Below are positions 3,848 to 63,616 of a DNA stretch of 64,000 bases, piece by piece. This stretch comes from Nitrospirota bacterium (lineage in GTDB: Bacteria; Nitrospirota; Nitrospiria; Nitrospirales; NS-4), in assembly GCA_005877815.1 (NCBI GenBank), contig VBOG01000028.1, positions 4,803 to 68,802 of the forward strand, written 5' to 3'. Position numbers and translations under genes: made by a program. The notes under the pieces are model-generated. The model did no database searches. It worked only from the letters and a program-made list of their open reading frames with translations, and was not told where the DNA came from. Within the stretch, counting starts at the first letter, position 1, and each line of letters starts with the position of its first letter.

Positions 3848-4186
3848 ATGAAACGTGCCATGTTTGTTTTTGCATTAGTTTCAGGTTTTTTGTTTATGTC
3901 GGCTGCTGCCTTCGCCAATCCGGCCCTGCTGAAAAAGCATGACGGCTACCCGGATGAGACGAAGAAGGCAACCACGTCGGTTGGTGACGCAGCCGGCTTG
4001 AAAGGCGCGGAGGATGCCCCCAAGGTCCTGAAGGAACAACTCAAGTCTGCCGATTACGGCGACCGTGCCGGCAATGCCTTCAGCGACGATCCTCGGCAGC
4101 GCAAGCACCCGGGCTATCCGGAAGGCGGTGTGACCGAAAGCCACATCAAGAACGCCACCAAAGTCAACGCCGCTCCGAAGAAGTAA
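3848..4186 (+). CDS. small secreted protein with two KHxGYP(D/E) motifs
   Basis: AGGAGG lies 7 nt upstream of ATG 3848. Signal peptide is MKRAMFVFALVSGFLFMSAAAFA. The repeated motifs are KKHDGYPDE and RKHPGYPEG. No family recognised. Confidence 0.6.
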   Translation: MKRAMFVFALVSGFLFMSAAAFANPALLKKHDGYPDETKKATTSVGDAAGLKGAEDAPKVLKEQLKSADYGDRAGNAFSDDPRQRKHPGYPEGGVTESHIKNATKVNAAPKK

Positions 4187-25555: not shown

Positions 25556-26545
25556 ATGAACTACCGGACACTCAGTGAAAAATCGATCGCGGGCGAAGCG
25601 CTCTCCCGTCCCGAAGCTCGCGCGGTGCTGGCCACTCCCGACGAAGCGCTTCTCGCATTGCTGGATGCCGCATTTCAAGTGCGACGGAAGTTCTTCGGAC
25701 GCAAGGTCCGGTTGCAGATGCTGCAAAACGCCAAGAGCGGCGCCTGCCAGGAAGATTGCGGCTACTGCTCCCAATCGGCGGTCTCCACGGCCGACATTTC
25801 TCAGTACGGGCTCCTGTCAAAAACCGAAATGGTCGCGGGCGCGAAGCAGGCCGCGGCATCCAAGGCCGTGCGCTACTGCATCGTGATCAGCGGGCGGGCA
25901 CCCCTCGAACGCGAGATTACCGCCATCAGCGAGGCAGTGCGTGACATTAAGCACGACGTGCCCGTCCAGGTGTGCTGCTCGCTGGGGCTCTTGACGGAAG
26001 AACACGCCGCCCGACTGAAGCAAGCCGGCGTGGATCGCATCAACCACAACCTGAACAGCTCAGAACGCTTTCATCCTGACATCGTCAGCACGCATACCTA
26101 TGAGGACCGGCTCTCCACGATCCGGAACGCGCGGGCCGTCGGCCTTGAAATCTGTTCGGGCGGCATCGCGGGCATGGGGGAAACGGATGAGGACGTGATC
26201 GACCTGGCATTTGCGTTGCGCGACGTACGGCCGGATTCGATCCCGATGAATTTTCTTCATCCGGTCGACGGCACGCCGATGCAGGGCCGGAAACATCTGA
26301 CGCCGCACAAATGCCTGAAGATCCTTTGCCTGTTCCGGTTCCTTCACCCAAAAACAGAACTGCGTGTCGCCGGCGGCCGCGAGTTCAACCTGCGCTCGAT
26401 GCAGGCTCTGGCGCTCTACCCTGCCGACTCGCTCTTCGTCGGCGGATACCTCACCACGCCGGGGATGCCGGCGGCGGAAGCCTGGAAGATGATCGAAGAC
26501 CTGGGCTTCGAGGTGGATGCCATCGGCGCGCCGGTCACAACTTAA
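25556..26545 (+). CDS. bioB: biotin synthase
   Basis: Radical SAM motif CQEDCGYCSQ in a BioB-like protein of 329 aa. Confidence 0.9.
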   Translation: MNYRTLSEKSIAGEALSRPEARAVLATPDEALLALLDAAFQVRRKFFGRKVRLQMLQNAKSGACQEDCGYCSQSAVSTADISQYGLLSKTEMVAGAKQAAASKAVRYCIVISGRAPLEREITAISEAVRDIKHDVPVQVCCSLGLLTEEHAARLKQAGVDRINHNLNSSERFHPDIVSTHTYEDRLSTIRNARAVGLEICSGGIAGMGETDEDVIDLAFALRDVRPDSIPMNFLHPVDGTPMQGRKHLTPHKCLKILCLFRFLHPKTELRVAGGREFNLRSMQALALYPADSLFVGGYLTTPGMPAAEAWKMIEDLGFEVDAIGAPVTT

Positions 26546-26580
26546 CCTTACGCGAGGCATGCCGTCGAGTCACCGAGGGT

Positions 26581-26725
26581 ACCCGTTGCTCTTTGCGCGG
26601 GTCCTGTCGGCGCATCACCCGAACGTGCTCAGGCCCTTTCGCCTTCGAGGCCCCGCAGATCAGGCTGTAGTGCCCTCCGCTCCGCTCGGGTCCCATGCGG
26701 CGCCACCCGCACGATTGCAACGGGT
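26581..26725 (+). repeat. 145-nt long-hairpin repeat, copy 1 (full core)
   Basis: Aligns without gaps to the reverse complement of 61758-61902, with 24 mismatches in 145 nt by my hand count. Terminal inverted repeats are ACCCGTTGC and GCAACGGGT. Confidence 0.85.
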
Positions 26726-26744
26726 CGTGTCGTTACGCTATCGC

Positions 26745-26824
26745 GGCCGTCGAAGATCCGGCTCCACGACCCTGCGCTCCGCCCGGGTCCCACTCGACGT
26801 CACCCGCGCCATTTCAACATCTGC
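26745..26824 (+). repeat. degenerate partial direct copy of the right half of the hairpin repeat
   Basis: GCCGTCGAAG...CGCTCCGCCCGGGTCCCA...CACCCGCGCCATTTCAAC parallels 26642-26725. Confidence 0.55.
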
Positions 26825-26859
26825 TGAGAGTCTGCGGCGCGCACAATGTCCAATCATTT

Positions 26860-29854: not shown

Positions 29855-29968
29855 GCGGGTGGCGCCGCATGGGACCGGGCGGAGCGGAAGAGCCTACAGC
29901 CGAGTGGACGGGGCTGCGACGGCGATTCGACCCGTCGCACGTCCGGGTCATGCGCCGACAGGACCCGC
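29855..29968 (-). repeat. hairpin repeat, copy 3 (truncated core, about 114 nt)
   Basis: GCGGGTGGCGCCGCATGGGACC...GACAGGACCCGC matches 61774-61887 on the same strand and the reverse complement of copy 1. It lacks the outermost ACCCGTTGC arms. Confidence 0.75.
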
Positions 29969-29975
29969 TCTGGCA

Positions 29976-30005
29976 TTGCGAAATCAACTCCTAAGCTTGT
30001 ACGAT
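29976..30005 (+). promoter_or_regulatory. sigma-70-type promoter candidate (TTGCGA-18-TACGAT) placed for a leaderless transcript
   Basis: The -10 element ends 6 nt before ATG 30012, and there is no SD in between. Confidence 0.3.
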
Positions 30006-59810: not shown

Positions 59811-60530
59811 CTATTTTTTGATGATCGTGGATTCCGTGCCGCCCAGCGGCGTGCTGCCCGTGCCGCCGTCCATGGAACTGTAGCGGACGTCATCGAAATG
59901 AGTCGCGGCCGGCCCGCGCGCCCACAACCCCACCTTGCCCTGTTTGTAGCGTCCGAACTCCCACGCGCCTTCGTGAGCCGCGATGATCTGCCGGTTATCG
60001 AAAAGCGCCTCCATTTCCGAGCCGCGGATCGTCAGGCGCAAAGAATGCCACTTGCCGGTTTCCATGGACTCCACGCTCAGGTCTCCAAGCGTCTTCGCTT
60101 CTCCGTTGACGACTTTATCGATGCGGACGAGCTTTTCCTGAGGGCTGAGCCACACCACGTAGTAATTGCGCTCGTCGTCCGCGCGGAACACGACGCCGCC
60201 GCCCTGGCCGTCTCCTCCGGCCGCCGCCTTGATGCGCACCGTCAGGTCCAGATTCATCGCTTCGACGCCATCGAGAAAGATCACCTGGGACGCGGAACTG
60301 GTCTTGCCGGAAGGGATTCGATCGAGTACGTTCGGACGAGAGACCGCCTTGGCATCCGAGGCGACTTCCCACCGTCCCGCCTCACCGTCCGTCTTGCCGA
60401 TGACGAACCCGGTCGGCGGATTTCCCGGCGCATCTTTGTCGAAGGACCATTCCAGAATTGTGAAATCGGCCCATGCCGGACTTCCGCAAACCAGCGCCAC
60501 CAACGCAACTATACATATTCGTCGTAACAC
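59811..60530 (-). CDS. secreted concanavalin/LamG-like jelly-roll protein (DUF1080-like)
   Basis: Signal peptide ending AWA, then a beta-rich domain (GGVVFRADDERNYYVVWL..., GKVGLWARG...HFDDVRY). The family call is by resemblance only. Confidence 0.5.
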   Translation of the reverse strand: MLRRICIVALVALVCGSPAWADFTILEWSFDKDAPGNPPTGFVIGKTDGEAGRWEVASDAKAVSRPNVLDRIPSGKTSSASQVIFLDGVEAMNLDLTVRIKAAAGGDGQGGGVVFRADDERNYYVVWLSPQEKLVRIDKVVNGEAKTLGDLSVESMETGKWHSLRLTIRGSEMEALFDNRQIIAAHEGAWEFGRYKQGKVGLWARGPAATHFDDVRYSSMDGGTGSTPLGGTESTIIKK

Positions 60531-60601
60531 CGATGTCTCCTATAGATTCTGTATGCGGAAGCCTCAGTATACCGTAGCGCGTTTCAGCAAATCGAGAGAG
60601 G

Positions 60602-61660
60602 TTATTTGACTTTGAGCTCGGTCCAGGCCCGATCGTAGGCTTTAATGGTCTCGCCCACATCCTTGATCCACTCCAGCCTGGCGACGGTGTCCTGAGACGG
60701 ATAGATGGCGGGGTTCTGGGCAATCTCTTTCGGCAGCAACACACGCGCCGCCTCATTGGCACTGGCATATTTCACTTTGGTCGTGATCTGGGCCGCCATC
60801 TGCGGCTCGAGGAGAAAGTTCACGAATGCCATGGCTTCATGCTTGTGAGCCGAGGTCTTCAGGATGCAGAGATTATCCTGCCAGATGGTGCCGCCCTCCT
60901 GGGGAATCACATATTTGATGGACGGTTTCTCGGCCGCCGCGCGCACGATCGTCCCGCTCCACCCATGCGCGAGCGCCACCTCGCCAGAGATCAGGAGCTG
61001 ATCGTAATTCTCGCTGGTATACGCTTTGACTAGCGGTTTTTGCGCCATCAGACGCACCTTGGCCGCCTCAAGCTTCACCAGATCCACGGTATTCAGCGAC
61101 TCGCCCGCCGAGCGAAGCGCCATGCTAAAGACTTCGCGCTCGTCATTCAGGAGACTAATCTTGCCCTTGTACCGTTCGTCCCAGAGCGCCTGCCAGCTTT
61201 GCGGCGGTGACGACACCATCTCTGCATTGTACCCGATGCCCGTCGTGCCCCAGAGATACGGAATCGAATAGGTATTCTGCGGATCGTAGTAGAGGCCTTT
61301 GAGATGCGCGTACACCTGCGCAAGGTTCGGGACCTTCGACCGATCCAGTTCGGCCAGCAACCCCTGCTTGATCATGATGGAGACCATGTAATCGGACGGC
61401 ACGACCACGTCGTAGCCTGAAGCGCCTCCCTGCAGCTTCGCGAGCAATTCCTCATTCGACCCGAACGTATCCGTCATGACATGGATGCCGAACCGCCGCT
61501 CGAACTCCTTGACGACTGTCTCCTCCGTATAGTCCGACCACGTAAACAGATGAAGCGTGACCTTCTTGGCATTGCCGTTATCCGACGATGGCGAACAGGC
61601 GGCAAGAATTAGCAGGAATGCAAAGGCGATGACGAGAACTGGCGAGCAGAGGAGGACCTT
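60602..61660 (-). CDS. potD: spermidine/putrescine ABC transporter substrate-binding lipoprotein (PotD/PotF-like), start codon unresolved
   Basis: PotD-like throughout. The lipoprotein signal ...KVLLCSPVLVIAFAFLLILAAC is present, but no in-frame ATG, GTG or TTG lies immediately upstream of or within it. The upper boundary is nominal. Confidence 0.75.
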   Translation of the reverse strand, partial: KVLLCSPVLVIAFAFLLILAACSPSSDNGNAKKVTLHLFTWSDYTEETVVKEFERRFGIHVMTDTFGSNEELLAKLQGGASGYDVVVPSDYMVSIMIKQGLLAELDRSKVPNLAQVYAHLKGLYYDPQNTYSIPYLWGTTGIGYNAEMVSSPPQSWQALWDERYKGKISLLNDEREVFSMALRSAGESLNTVDLVKLEAAKVRLMAQKPLVKAYTSENYDQLLISGEVALAHGWSGTIVRAAAEKPSIKYVIPQEGGTIWQDNLCILKTSAHKHEAMAFVNFLLEPQMAAQITTKVKYASANEAARVLLPKEIAQNPAIYPSQDTVARLEWIKDVGETIKAYDRAWTELKVK

Positions 61661-61676
61661 TTCTTGCGGGTGAGTC

Positions 61677-61931
61677 GGGAACGGGTGGCGCGTAGCGGGC
61701 GCCCTGAGCCCGGCGTGAGTAAGTCCGCGCGAGGCTTTGCGACGAACGACCGGATTGACCCGTTGCAGTCGCGCGGGTGGTGCCGCATGGGACCCAGGCG
61801 GAGCGGAGTAGCGTACAGCCGAGTCTGCGGGGCTTCGACGGCGAAACGCCGCGAGCACGTCTGGGTGATGCGGCGACACGACCCGCGCAAAGAGCAATGG
61901 GTTCCCCGGCTGAGCGACAGGACCCGTTCCC
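61677..61931 (-). repeat. hairpin repeat, copy 2 (145-nt core 61758-61902 nested in a 255-bp unit with GGGAACGGGT/ACCCGTTCCC termini)
   Basis: The core is about 83% identical to the reverse complement of 26581-26725. The outer termini are shared with 26860-27010. It occupies the potC-potD spacer. Confidence 0.85.
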
Positions 61932-61971
61932 GTGTGCGCCGACAGGCCCTGCTCCTTGATTGCAGCTTGAT

Positions 61972-62736
61972 TCATTTCCTCTGCACCCACGTCGCCACCG
62001 CCACCAGCCCCATCGAGATCACCACCAGCACCGCCGATAACGCATTCACCTCCGGCGTCACCGCCGTCTTCAGCATGCCATACACCTTGATCGGCAAAGT
62101 GGTCGAACCGACCCCGGCCAGAAAGAAGCTGATGATGAAGTCGTCCAGCGACAGCGTGAACGCCATGAGCAGCGCGCCGATGATGCCGGGCATGAGCAGC
62201 GGCAGCGTGACCCGTCGGAATGCGGTCCACGGCGTCGCGCCCAGGTCCAACGCGGCCTCTTCAAGCTGCGGGTCCAGCTTTCGCAGGCGCGCACGCACGA
62301 TCAGCGCCACGACCGGAAAGTTAAACATCGTGTGGGCAATGATGATCGTCACCAGCGAAAGCTTGACGCCGATCATGACGAAGAACAGCAGCATCGCCAC
62401 GCCCATCATGATCTCGGGGATAATGATCGGCAGCAGCAGCACGCCTTCACATGCATGAAGACCAGGGAATGCCTGGCGCTCCAAGGCCACGGCCGTCAGC
62501 ACGCCGAGCATGCCGGCGAGAATCGTCGACACCACGGCGACGATGAGGCTGTTCCAGGTTGACGATAACAACGCCTCATGGGTGAACAGCTTCGCATACC
62601 ACTGGAGCGAGAACCCCTGCCAGCGCGCGGAAAACTTTGACGCGTTGAATGAGAACACGATGAGGATCGCGATCGGGAGGTACAGGAACAGCAGGTCCGT
62701 GATGCTTGCCGCGACGATCCAATGACGGGTTTTCAT
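61972..62736 (-). CDS. potC: spermidine/putrescine ABC transporter permease PotC
   Basis: Six-TM permease with an EAA-loop-like LEEAALDLGATPWTAFRRVTLP. ATG 62736 is preferred (10 nt after the potB stop). Confidence 0.85.
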   Translation of the reverse strand: MKTRHWIVAASITDLLFLYLPIAILIVFSFNASKFSARWQGFSLQWYAKLFTHEALLSSTWNSLIVAVVSTILAGMLGVLTAVALERQAFPGLHACEGVLLLPIIIPEIMMGVAMLLFFVMIGVKLSLVTIIIAHTMFNFPVVALIVRARLRKLDPQLEEAALDLGATPWTAFRRVTLPLLMPGIIGALLMAFTLSLDDFIISFFLAGVGSTTLPIKVYGMLKTAVTPEVNALSAVLVVISMGLVAVATWVQRK

Positions 62737-62746
62737 GGTGTCTGGT

Positions 62747-63616
62747 TTACGCGAGATTTTTGGGGCCGCCTGCACGCAGATATGACATCACGGCCAGCAG
62801 CACGCCGACCATCAGGATGAAGGAGAGCGCCGACCCGAAGGGCCAGTCGCGGACCACCAGGTACTGATGTTGGATCAGATTCCCGATCATGAGCGTTCTC
62901 GCCCCCCCCAGGAGATCCGGAGTGACATACGCCCCGAGCGATGGAATGAAGACCAGGAGACAGCCCGCGATGATGCCCGGCTTGCTCAAAGGCAGAATGA
63001 TGCGCGTGAAAATTCTGACCGGGCTCGCGTAGAGATCCCACGCCGCCTCGATCAATGCAGGGTCGAGACGCTCGAGGGCCGCATACAGCGGCAAGACCAT
63101 GAACGGCAGATAGCCATAGACCAGCCCGAGCAGGACCGCACCGTCGGTGTAGAGCAGGTTCAGCGGTTGGTCAATGAGACCGGCGGAGATCAGCGCCGTA
63201 TTCAGCAACCCTTCGGTCCGCAGAATGAACATCCAGGCGTAGGTCCGCACCAGAAAGTTCGTCCAGAAGGGGATGATGACCAGCAGCAGCAGCGCGCCCT
63301 GCCAGCGTTTCGGGGCGCCCGCAATCGCATAGGCGAGCGGAAACCCGATCACAAGACAGATGGCGGAGCTGGCGACGGCGATCCAGAGCGACCGCCAGAA
63401 AATGCGCAGGTAGAGCGGATCGAGGATGCTCGTATAGTTCGAGACGGTCAGCGTCCATTCAATGCCGCCGTAGGTGCCGCGGGACGCGAAGCTGACGGCG
63501 AGGACCACGAGGAGCGGCATCAGGAAGAAGACCAGAAGGGCAGCGGCGGGCGGGACGATCAGCCAGGGAACGGTCAGTCGGCCTCGCGCGTTGAGAACGG
63601 AGTCAGCGGTCTTCAC
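62747..63616 (-). CDS. potB: spermidine/putrescine ABC transporter permease PotB
   Basis: Permease with EAA loop IEAAWDLYASPVRIFTRIILP. It overlaps potA by 4 nt. Confidence 0.85.
   Translation of the reverse strand: MKTADSVLNARGRLTVPWLIVPPAAALLVFFLMPLLVVLAVSFASRGTYGGIEWTLTVSNYTSILDPLYLRIFWRSLWIAVASSAICLVIGFPLAYAIAGAPKRWQGALLLLVIIPFWTNFLVRTYAWMFILRTEGLLNTALISAGLIDQPLNLLYTDGAVLLGLVYGYLPFMVLPLYAALERLDPALIEAAWDLYASPVRIFTRIILPLSKPGIIAGCLLVFIPSLGAYVTPDLLGGARTLMIGNLIQHQYLVVRDWPFGSALSFILMVGVLLAVMSYLRAGGPKNLA

Follow-up and report, generated by a model that had tools for sequence, protein, structure and literature searches.

A palindromic repeat, kept in frame, lies between the probable start codon of potD and its lipoprotein signal peptide in a Nitrospirota bacterium

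We investigated where translation of a potD-like lipoprotein gene is likely to begin in a 64,000-nucleotide (nt) stretch of DNA from a Nitrospirota bacterium of the order Nitrospirales (contig VBOG01000028.1, positions 4,803 to 68,802 of the forward strand; assembly GCA_005877815.1), here called the window, to which all coordinates refer unless a locus is named. The gene lies on the minus strand, and a palindromic repeat sits between its signal peptide and the preceding gene, potC. Directly upstream of potD, on the same strand, are PotC-like and PotB-like open reading frames (ORFs), whose best NCBIfam matches are PotC NF007047 (252.7 bits, below the 326-bit equivalog cut-off) and PotB (288.2 bits, likewise below the equivalog cut-off). 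The potD product itself best matches PotD NF007048 (251 bits, below the 582-bit equivalog cut-off), with Pfam SBP_bac_8/6/1/11 matching residues 153-429 well above threshold, and its public relatives, the closest of them from uncultured Nitrospirales, are named spermidine/putrescine solute-binding proteins. By these matches, the downstream protein is best described as a PotD/PotF-type solute-binding protein encoded by the last gene of a potABCD-like operon. The locus contains the following features:

61972-62775, minus strand: potC, an ABC permease gene from the ORF list, ending at stop codon TGA 61974-61972.
61973-61975, minus strand: proposed potD start codon ATG, overlapping the potC stop (ATGA) and preceded by GAGG, in the sequence AGAGGAAATGA.
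60602-61975, minus strand: full potD ORF, 457 codons plus stop, read as a 126-residue leader followed by the mature lipoprotein.
61682-61935 (approximate boundaries), minus strand: composite (nested) palindromic repeat in the leader-coding region, aligning over ~250 nt with a copy downstream of bioB.
61773-61886, minus strand: core repeat of ~114 nt, with terminal inverted repeats GCGGGTCGTGTCGCCGCATCACCC ... CCCATGCGGCACCACCCGC.
61609-61681, minus strand: segment polymorphic within the species, replaced in loci L083 (338-1491) and L001 (1-395) by a 1154-nt low-GC cassette, as placed by blastn breakpoints.
61595-61660, minus strand: classical part of the signal peptide, comprising K106, the hydrophobic core VLLCSPVLVIAFAFLLIL and the lipobox L-A-A-C, with Cys127 at 61597-61595.
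61475-61477, minus strand: downstream ATG (in HVMTDT), used by one public gene caller for a 291-residue product (P0121) that lacks the signal peptide.

The signal peptide has the usual parts of a lipoprotein signal. The lipobox L-A-A-C occupies residues 124-127 (61606-61595), with an equivalent lipobox in orthologues; the h-region reaches a Kyte-Doolittle mean of up to 3.45 over residues 113-123; and K106 and R96 provide positive charge just upstream of the core, within a leader of net charge +11. Its length is what departs from the norm. A lipoprotein signal peptide usually spans ~15-35 residues from start codon to Cys, and relatives lacking the repeat have 15-20, whereas the distance here is 126 residues counted from ATG 61975 and 87 counted from GTG 61858. 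The leader is rich in Arg, Pro and Ala, includes the tryptic peptides SPADSAVR and YSAPPGSHAAPPAR, and matched no family in Pfam and NCBIfam searches. A Tat signal was rejected, as the RR motifs lie >25 residues from the hydrophobic core and there is no S/T-R-R-x-F-L-K motif. A PotC-PotD fusion or frameshift was rejected as well, since potC terminates at a TGA in another frame.

In the sequence of 60300-62400, read with the ORF list, the minus-strand potD frame runs ...FPTHPQEKVLLCSPVLVIAFAFLLILAAC, then SPSSDNGN..., with the lipobox Cys codon at 61597-61595. A codon-by-codon listing of this frame found no ATG, GTG or TTG between GTG 61858 and the lipobox Cys, and the first canonical start past the Cys is ATG 61477-61475 in HVMTDT; both points bear out an initial annotation of this DNA, which had reported a signal peptide with no canonical start codon of its own. 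A run of ~30 codons without a start codon is not improbable per se; the anomaly is structural, in that a signal peptide lacks an adjoining start. The same annotation correctly named GTG 61858-61856, an in-frame alternative start on the minus strand within the repeat and 87 residues before the Cys, as the nearest one upstream, a codon that is not conserved among relatives. What it overlooked is that the frame stays open above this GTG, through GTG 61879 and TTG 61897, up to a conserved ATG at 61975-61973. This ATG lies 378 nt upstream of the Cys codon in the same frame with no intervening stop, and all 457 codons are free of stops and frameshifts.

Repeats can cause misassembly, and the initial annotation had counted a sequencing error among its explanations; nothing else beyond the anomaly itself points that way. 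The assemblies exclude it. Locus L084 comes from another metagenome record and agrees with the window at 3992/3996 positions (99.9%), including 106/106 over 61595-61700. The exact 457-residue product from ATG 61975 is NCBI TLY38020.1 by exact-sequence look-up, a variant differing from it at two residues (P0124) is present on six contigs, and two partial proteins, P0130 and P0132, share the leader and signal peptide. The proposal that a sequencing or assembly error removed the true start is thus refuted at the level of independent assemblies, and we assign it a negligible chance. What varies is the annotation: at the potC-potD junction it is inconsistent, while the sequence is not in doubt. The ENA gene call here starts at ATG 61477 (291 residues, P0121), and the NCBI record of a related locus, L004, places the potD start at MFAALVAC (338 residues, P0022). 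The long in-frame leader accounts for this discord among gene callers, which return 457, 338 or 291 residues for one architecture, and it carries a warning that repeat insertions near 5′ ends can lead to truncated calls that delete signal peptides. Several other database proteins begin at or just before the lipobox (P0037, VACS...; P0039, MACS...), their signal peptides removed.

We took potD neighbourhoods from 80 genome contigs and 80 metagenome contigs and determined in each where potC ends and where the lipobox Cys lies. Twenty loci with potC and potD <400 nt apart formed the junction set, 4 of them free of the element and 16 carrying repeat copies or fragments. In the four element-free loci (L103, L014, L117 and L005), potD starts at an ATG overlapping the potC stop (ATGA) and encodes a short ordinary signal peptide: MRAATIAILLLMLAAC in L103, MSRILCAIVLLALLAAC in L014 and L117, and MKASPLQW... 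in L005, with MKASPLQWLFVCVLMTCLAAC being one of these short sequences. This ATG is conserved in most of the loci, the ATGA overlap being present in 18 of 20 junctions, with or without the element (exceptions L102 and L111). By this comparison, the ATG overlapping the potC stop is best read as the ancestral potD start. In the 16 junctions with repeat material, that material sits between the ATG overlap and the hydrophobic core.

Across the set, the potC stop and the Cys codon are separated by 12 different distances (41, 44, 56, 152, 164, 167, 173, 182, 194, 218, 314 and 374 nt), and 19 of the 20 junctions have a value of 2 mod 3, which is in frame with the overlapping ATG; none of these 19 contains a stop codon in that frame. 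Seventeen of the 19 have ATG as the overlap codon, the others being L102, which has a TAATG overlap and an ATG one codon later, and L111, which has no ATG at the junction and for which a GTG inside the element is the candidate start. The single out-of-frame junction, L008 (268 nt), carries an ATG inside the element, at its edge. Among element-bearing junctions there are 9 distinct in-frame lengths against 1 out of frame, for which the binomial P is ~1e-3 if net indels were neutral. We used only net leader lengths for this count, because pairwise leader alignments were too gappy; single gaps were often not multiples of 3, whereas the totals were. An open frame alone was rejected as evidence of translation, being insufficient where a second frame is stop-free in most loci.

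The frame is held in a particular manner. The 5′ terminal inverted repeat (TIR), the 3′ TIR and the CAAGAAA junction immediately ahead of the hydrophobic core each fall in frame 0, 1 or 2 depending on the lineage, and the distances upstream and downstream of these motifs each vary mod 3 among lineages, with a sum that is always 0. Because the motifs shift frame between lineages while the total stays in frame, selection would appear to act on continuity of the reading frame and not on the leader peptide. In seven loci (L087, L002, L020, L089, L096, L106 and L004), the ATG of the ATGA overlap is the only canonical in-frame start before the hydrophobic core. Mature PotD is intact and 77-85% identical across the species compared, which argues that the in-frame repeat arrangement is old and that potD has been under continued purifying selection; an intact mature PotD is not expected had the gene lost its start long ago.

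These comparisons also bear on non-canonical initiation just before the signal peptide, for which the initial annotation had named CTG, ATC and ATT as available. Such codons do occur in the potD frame, at ATC 61630, CTG 61615 and ATT 61609, and a Shine-Dalgarno (SD)-like AAGAAAAGG lies at ~61665-61657. They stand, however, 11, 6 and 4 residues before the Cys, too late for the hydrophobic core, which would be shortened and left without an n-region. No in-frame CTG, ATT, ATC or ATA occurs between CTG 61768 and ATC 61630, and the CTG that follows the SD-like sequence by ~7 nt is out of frame, its own frame ending at a TAA. None of the near-cognate codons is conserved in orthologues, whose n-regions read ARKFLAT, TRKKIFAT, AKKILAT and ARNFLAT, and initiation there would leave the mod-3 conservation back to the ATGA unexplained. 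We regard this route as very improbable.

The explanation that we consider probable is that potD starts at ATG 61975 and carries an in-frame repeat insert within a long cleavable leader, with no exotic start codon. Translation of the gene would begin at ATG 61975-61973, which shares with the potC stop the ATGA overlap typical of translational coupling. A palindromic repeat resembling a MITE (a miniature transposable element with inverted repeats) would have entered just after the start codon, in the stretch encoding the positive n-region of the signal peptide. The insert, ~250 nt here, is a nested composite that is in frame and stop-free. The primary product would then be a 457-residue pre-lipoprotein with a 126-residue leader, made up of ~105 repeat-encoded Arg/Pro/Ala-rich residues followed by a normal hydrophobic core and LAAC. 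We infer that the extension acts as an over-long n-region and remains cytoplasmic while the hydrophobic core VLLCSPVLVIAFAFLLIL engages Sec; Lgt would lipidate Cys127 and signal peptidase II (LspA) would cut off the whole leader, leaving mature PotD unchanged. Because the leader is discarded, an insertion would be cheap as long as the frame is kept; the insertion would therefore be tolerated, and frame continuity rather than peptide sequence would be preserved.

On this explanation the apparently start-less, non-canonical gene disappears: potD has a normal ATG coupled to the upstream cistron. The proposal in the initial annotation that the repeat had displaced the original start holds insofar as the repeat does separate the start from the signal peptide; the start was kept in frame, and the outcome would be an in-frame fusion rather than a pseudogene. 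No new mechanism is opened by the locus; the gene would be an ordinary one whose in-frame repeat insertion is unusual yet can be explained. It would offer a comparative example of a mobile palindromic repeat tolerated in coding sequence since it hit a part of the protein that is discarded, and it suggests that lipoprotein signal peptides can bear N-terminal extensions of >100 residues.

Translation could instead start inside the repeat, at TTG 61897, GTG 61879 or GTG 61858, giving a leader of 87-100 residues and making the ORF from the ATGA incidental. All three codons are in frame, and relatives provide some precedent: in L008 and in the database protein P0079 an ATG at the element edge is the only usable start, and in L101 and L111 a start at a GTG in the 3′ end of the element yields a signal peptide of normal form, 23 residues long. 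However, no SD sequence is recognisable upstream of any of the three codons, and they are not conserved, the seven loci listed above having no canonical start inside the element. A start inside the repeat also does not require the frame to be kept between the ATGA and the element, yet this segment keeps its frame across lineages. We therefore consider an internal start unlikely in the window. The corresponding suggestion of the initial annotation, that the element supplies the initiation region, is unneeded here, and it seems to apply in L008 and P0079 (ATG) and in L101 and L111 (GTG). At L008 (2368-2370) and in P0079 the ATG lies at the same repeat edge (MTFRRRSPADS... and MAFRRRSPADS..., respectively). 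The ATGA frame of L008 is broken, and these ATGs look like compensatory new starts supplied by the element.

A further alternative is raised by variation within the species. In L083 and L001, whose flanks are 99.7-99.9% identical to the window, the 73-nt signal-peptide segment is swapped for the 1154-nt cassette, whose genes encode HicA (HicA_toxin PF07927, E = 4.8e-18), a possible antitoxin (a small ORF at the antitoxin position) and a hypothetical secreted protein. The potD of this allele has a different signal peptide, VSVNTLRSIAVIASFLFFAAC, and its own GTG start, which overlaps the hicA stop. The potD allele of the window might accordingly be a young pseudogene, unexpressed or poorly expressed, with the hicA-cassette allele as the working version. 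The existence of this second allele at 99.9% identity, with a replaced signal peptide and a start coupled to hicA, would fit such a reading, as would the highly structured leader RNA. It has to contend, however, with the start-less arrangement recurring in several species ~80% identical in PotD, with intact mature regions and leaders in frame, with the presence of the window allele on many independent contigs, and with the absence of any stop or frameshift in 457 codons. Overall, we judge a pseudogene to be quite improbable, less likely than a start within the repeat.

Returning to ATG 61975 as the start codon, several points weigh against it. The case for this codon is comparative throughout, and relatedness among the loci leaves fewer independent indel events than there are loci. 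At most loci the GC-rich repeat lacks stops in a second frame too, and the case hangs on the mod-3 pattern. The GAGG lies just 2 nt from the ATG, strong structure is predicted for the leader RNA, the in-frame TTG 61897, GTG 61879 and GTG 61858 are also usable here, and some public gene callers choose other starts. A lipoprotein leader of 126 residues is, to our knowledge, far beyond any well-studied bacterial signal peptide; the extended signals of autotransporters reach only ~50-60 residues.

Looking beyond the window, we see an about even chance that the PotD n-region is a 'safe harbour' for palindromic mobile repeats in this soil Nitrospirales clade, in which successive insertions, nestings and indels would have yielded translated leaders of 50-126 residues that selection holds in frame whatever their sequence. 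As speculation, the structured RNA or the Arg-rich cytoplasmic extension might tune PotD output relative to PotABC. This idea was prompted by the feedback of the E. coli PotD precursor on transcription of the pot operon.

The insert belongs to a repeat family with three copies in the 64-kb window and more in relatives. Beside the copy in potD, two intergenic copies were found:

26570-26726, plus strand: second repeat copy, intergenic, downstream of a bioB-like ORF (25556-26545).
29855-29968, minus strand: third repeat copy, in the intergenic space of a divergent gene pair and upstream of a J-domain gene.

Motif searches for the repeat returned 3 and 2 matches against 0 expected, and the pair 61757-61913 and 26570-26726 is 82% complementary. 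The terminal inverted repeats of the core (61886-61773), given at length, are GCGGGTCSTGTCGSCGCATSACCC ... CCCATGCGGCRCCACCCGC. Their terminal stem of ~14 pairs is kept across a 12-copy alignment drawn from the window and relatives, with compensatory changes at a few pairs. In potD the core sits within a second copy that encloses it, and the same composite is found again downstream of bioB. Folding of the whole 386-nt region gives a long nested hairpin whose stability exceeds that of 100/100 shuffles (z = -4.1). On these features the insert looks like a MITE-type palindromic repeat.

Searches for other identities of the repeat returned little. No family was returned by an Rfam scan of 61400-62100 at E <= 1, and a promoter and terminator scan of 61400-62200 found nothing, with no sign of an element-borne promoter. 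We identified no partner transposase or target-site duplication; no clean pair of empty and filled sites was resolved, and a parent insertion sequence was not sought. CACCCGC repeats flank the extra segment of the insert and are only suggestive of a target-site duplication. A limited search of the literature on Nitrospira repeat families found nothing specific. A database search with the repeat-encoded peptide in the correct frame recovered 17 short domain-less ORFs only, so this search gives no sign that in-frame capture by real genes is common for the family.

Rickettsia RPEs, Coxiella QMITEs and sequences of the enterobacterial RU/ERIC type provide known cases of palindromic repeats captured in frame by ORFs (PMC10969869, PMC5896051; see also PMC2759123). 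RPEs and intragenic MITEs resemble the potD repeat in being ~100-170 nt long, palindromic, multi-copy and mostly intergenic, with some copies in frame within ORFs and adding peptide to them. As in those systems, the element lies inside an ORF with the frame kept and without stops (19 of 20 junctions). RPEs, however, contribute a conserved peptide in one fixed frame, whereas no such peptide is seen here, the motifs of the Nitrospirales repeat falling in all three frames (0, 1 and 2) depending on the lineage. The potD repeat also differs in lying in the n-region of a cleaved signal peptide, outside the mature protein. The family also differs in being GC-rich and from Nitrospirales, with no Rfam match and no counterpart found in a limited literature search.

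The signals of autotransporters and two-partner secretion (TPS) proteins provide a second comparison. In EspP, whose signal spans 55 residues, the part from residue 23 to residue 55 suffices, making an N-terminal extension compatible with export (PMC2805444). Such extended signals share with potD a positive N-terminal extension before a classical n-h-c Sec signal. The extended signal peptide region (ESPR), however, is ~25 residues long, with a conserved motif and a proposed function, and precedes a signal for signal peptidase I; the potD extension is ~105 residues, ~4x the ESPR length, is repeat-derived without a conserved peptide, and precedes a lipobox signal for signal peptidase II. With respect to translational coupling in ABC-transporter operons, the potD ATG and potC TGA form the standard 4-nt ATGA overlap; the overlap itself is usual, and the unusual part is what follows the potD start codon. 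REP/BIME sequences such as that of malE-malF likewise place a GC-rich palindrome, predicted to form a stable mRNA hairpin, between ABC-transporter cistrons. REPs, however, are 20-40 nt of untranslated intercistronic RNA, whereas the potD element is at least 114 nt and lies inside the downstream ORF.

The potC-potD junction accommodates other DNA as well. Many Nitrospirales carry 0.7-1.4 kb of extra DNA between the two genes, often with the repeat still ahead of it (L007, L011, L016-L018, L091, L093, L100, L104, L105, L113, L114, L124, L133, L136, L137, L140, L144 and L160). Because similar cassettes occupy it in many relatives, the junction looks like a hotspot for recombination or insertion in this clade. 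At cassette loci whose potD is equipped with a start of its own, the ORF beginning at the potC stop soon terminates, at some loci inside the element or shortly beyond it. L137 has a hicA/hicB pair between the ATGA and the element; potD can start only at a TTG beside the hicB stop, and from there again reads through the element.

Some relatives have another palindromic repeat, unrelated to the first, at this junction: CCCCTCTCCCCTGGCGGGAGAGGGTTAGGGTGAGGGG (translated as ...PLPWRERVRVRG...) is present at L111 446-500, and also occurs just after the potC stop in L011, L104, L091 and L144. In L111 the GTG within this unrelated repeat, preceded by GGAGAGGG, is the candidate potD start.

Other copies of the potD repeat affect gene calls elsewhere, with spurious ORFs lying over them in public data. 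In the window, the composite repeat at 26570-26830 yields several spurious plus-strand ORFs of 98-152 residues. At 29855-29987, where a repeat copy lies directly upstream of the J-domain gene, the longest-ORF rule adds ~57 residues to that gene through the repeat, from TTG 29987, and the divergent plus-strand ORF from 29712 is likewise over-extended. Both extensions are probably over-extended gene calls due to the stop-poor repeat.

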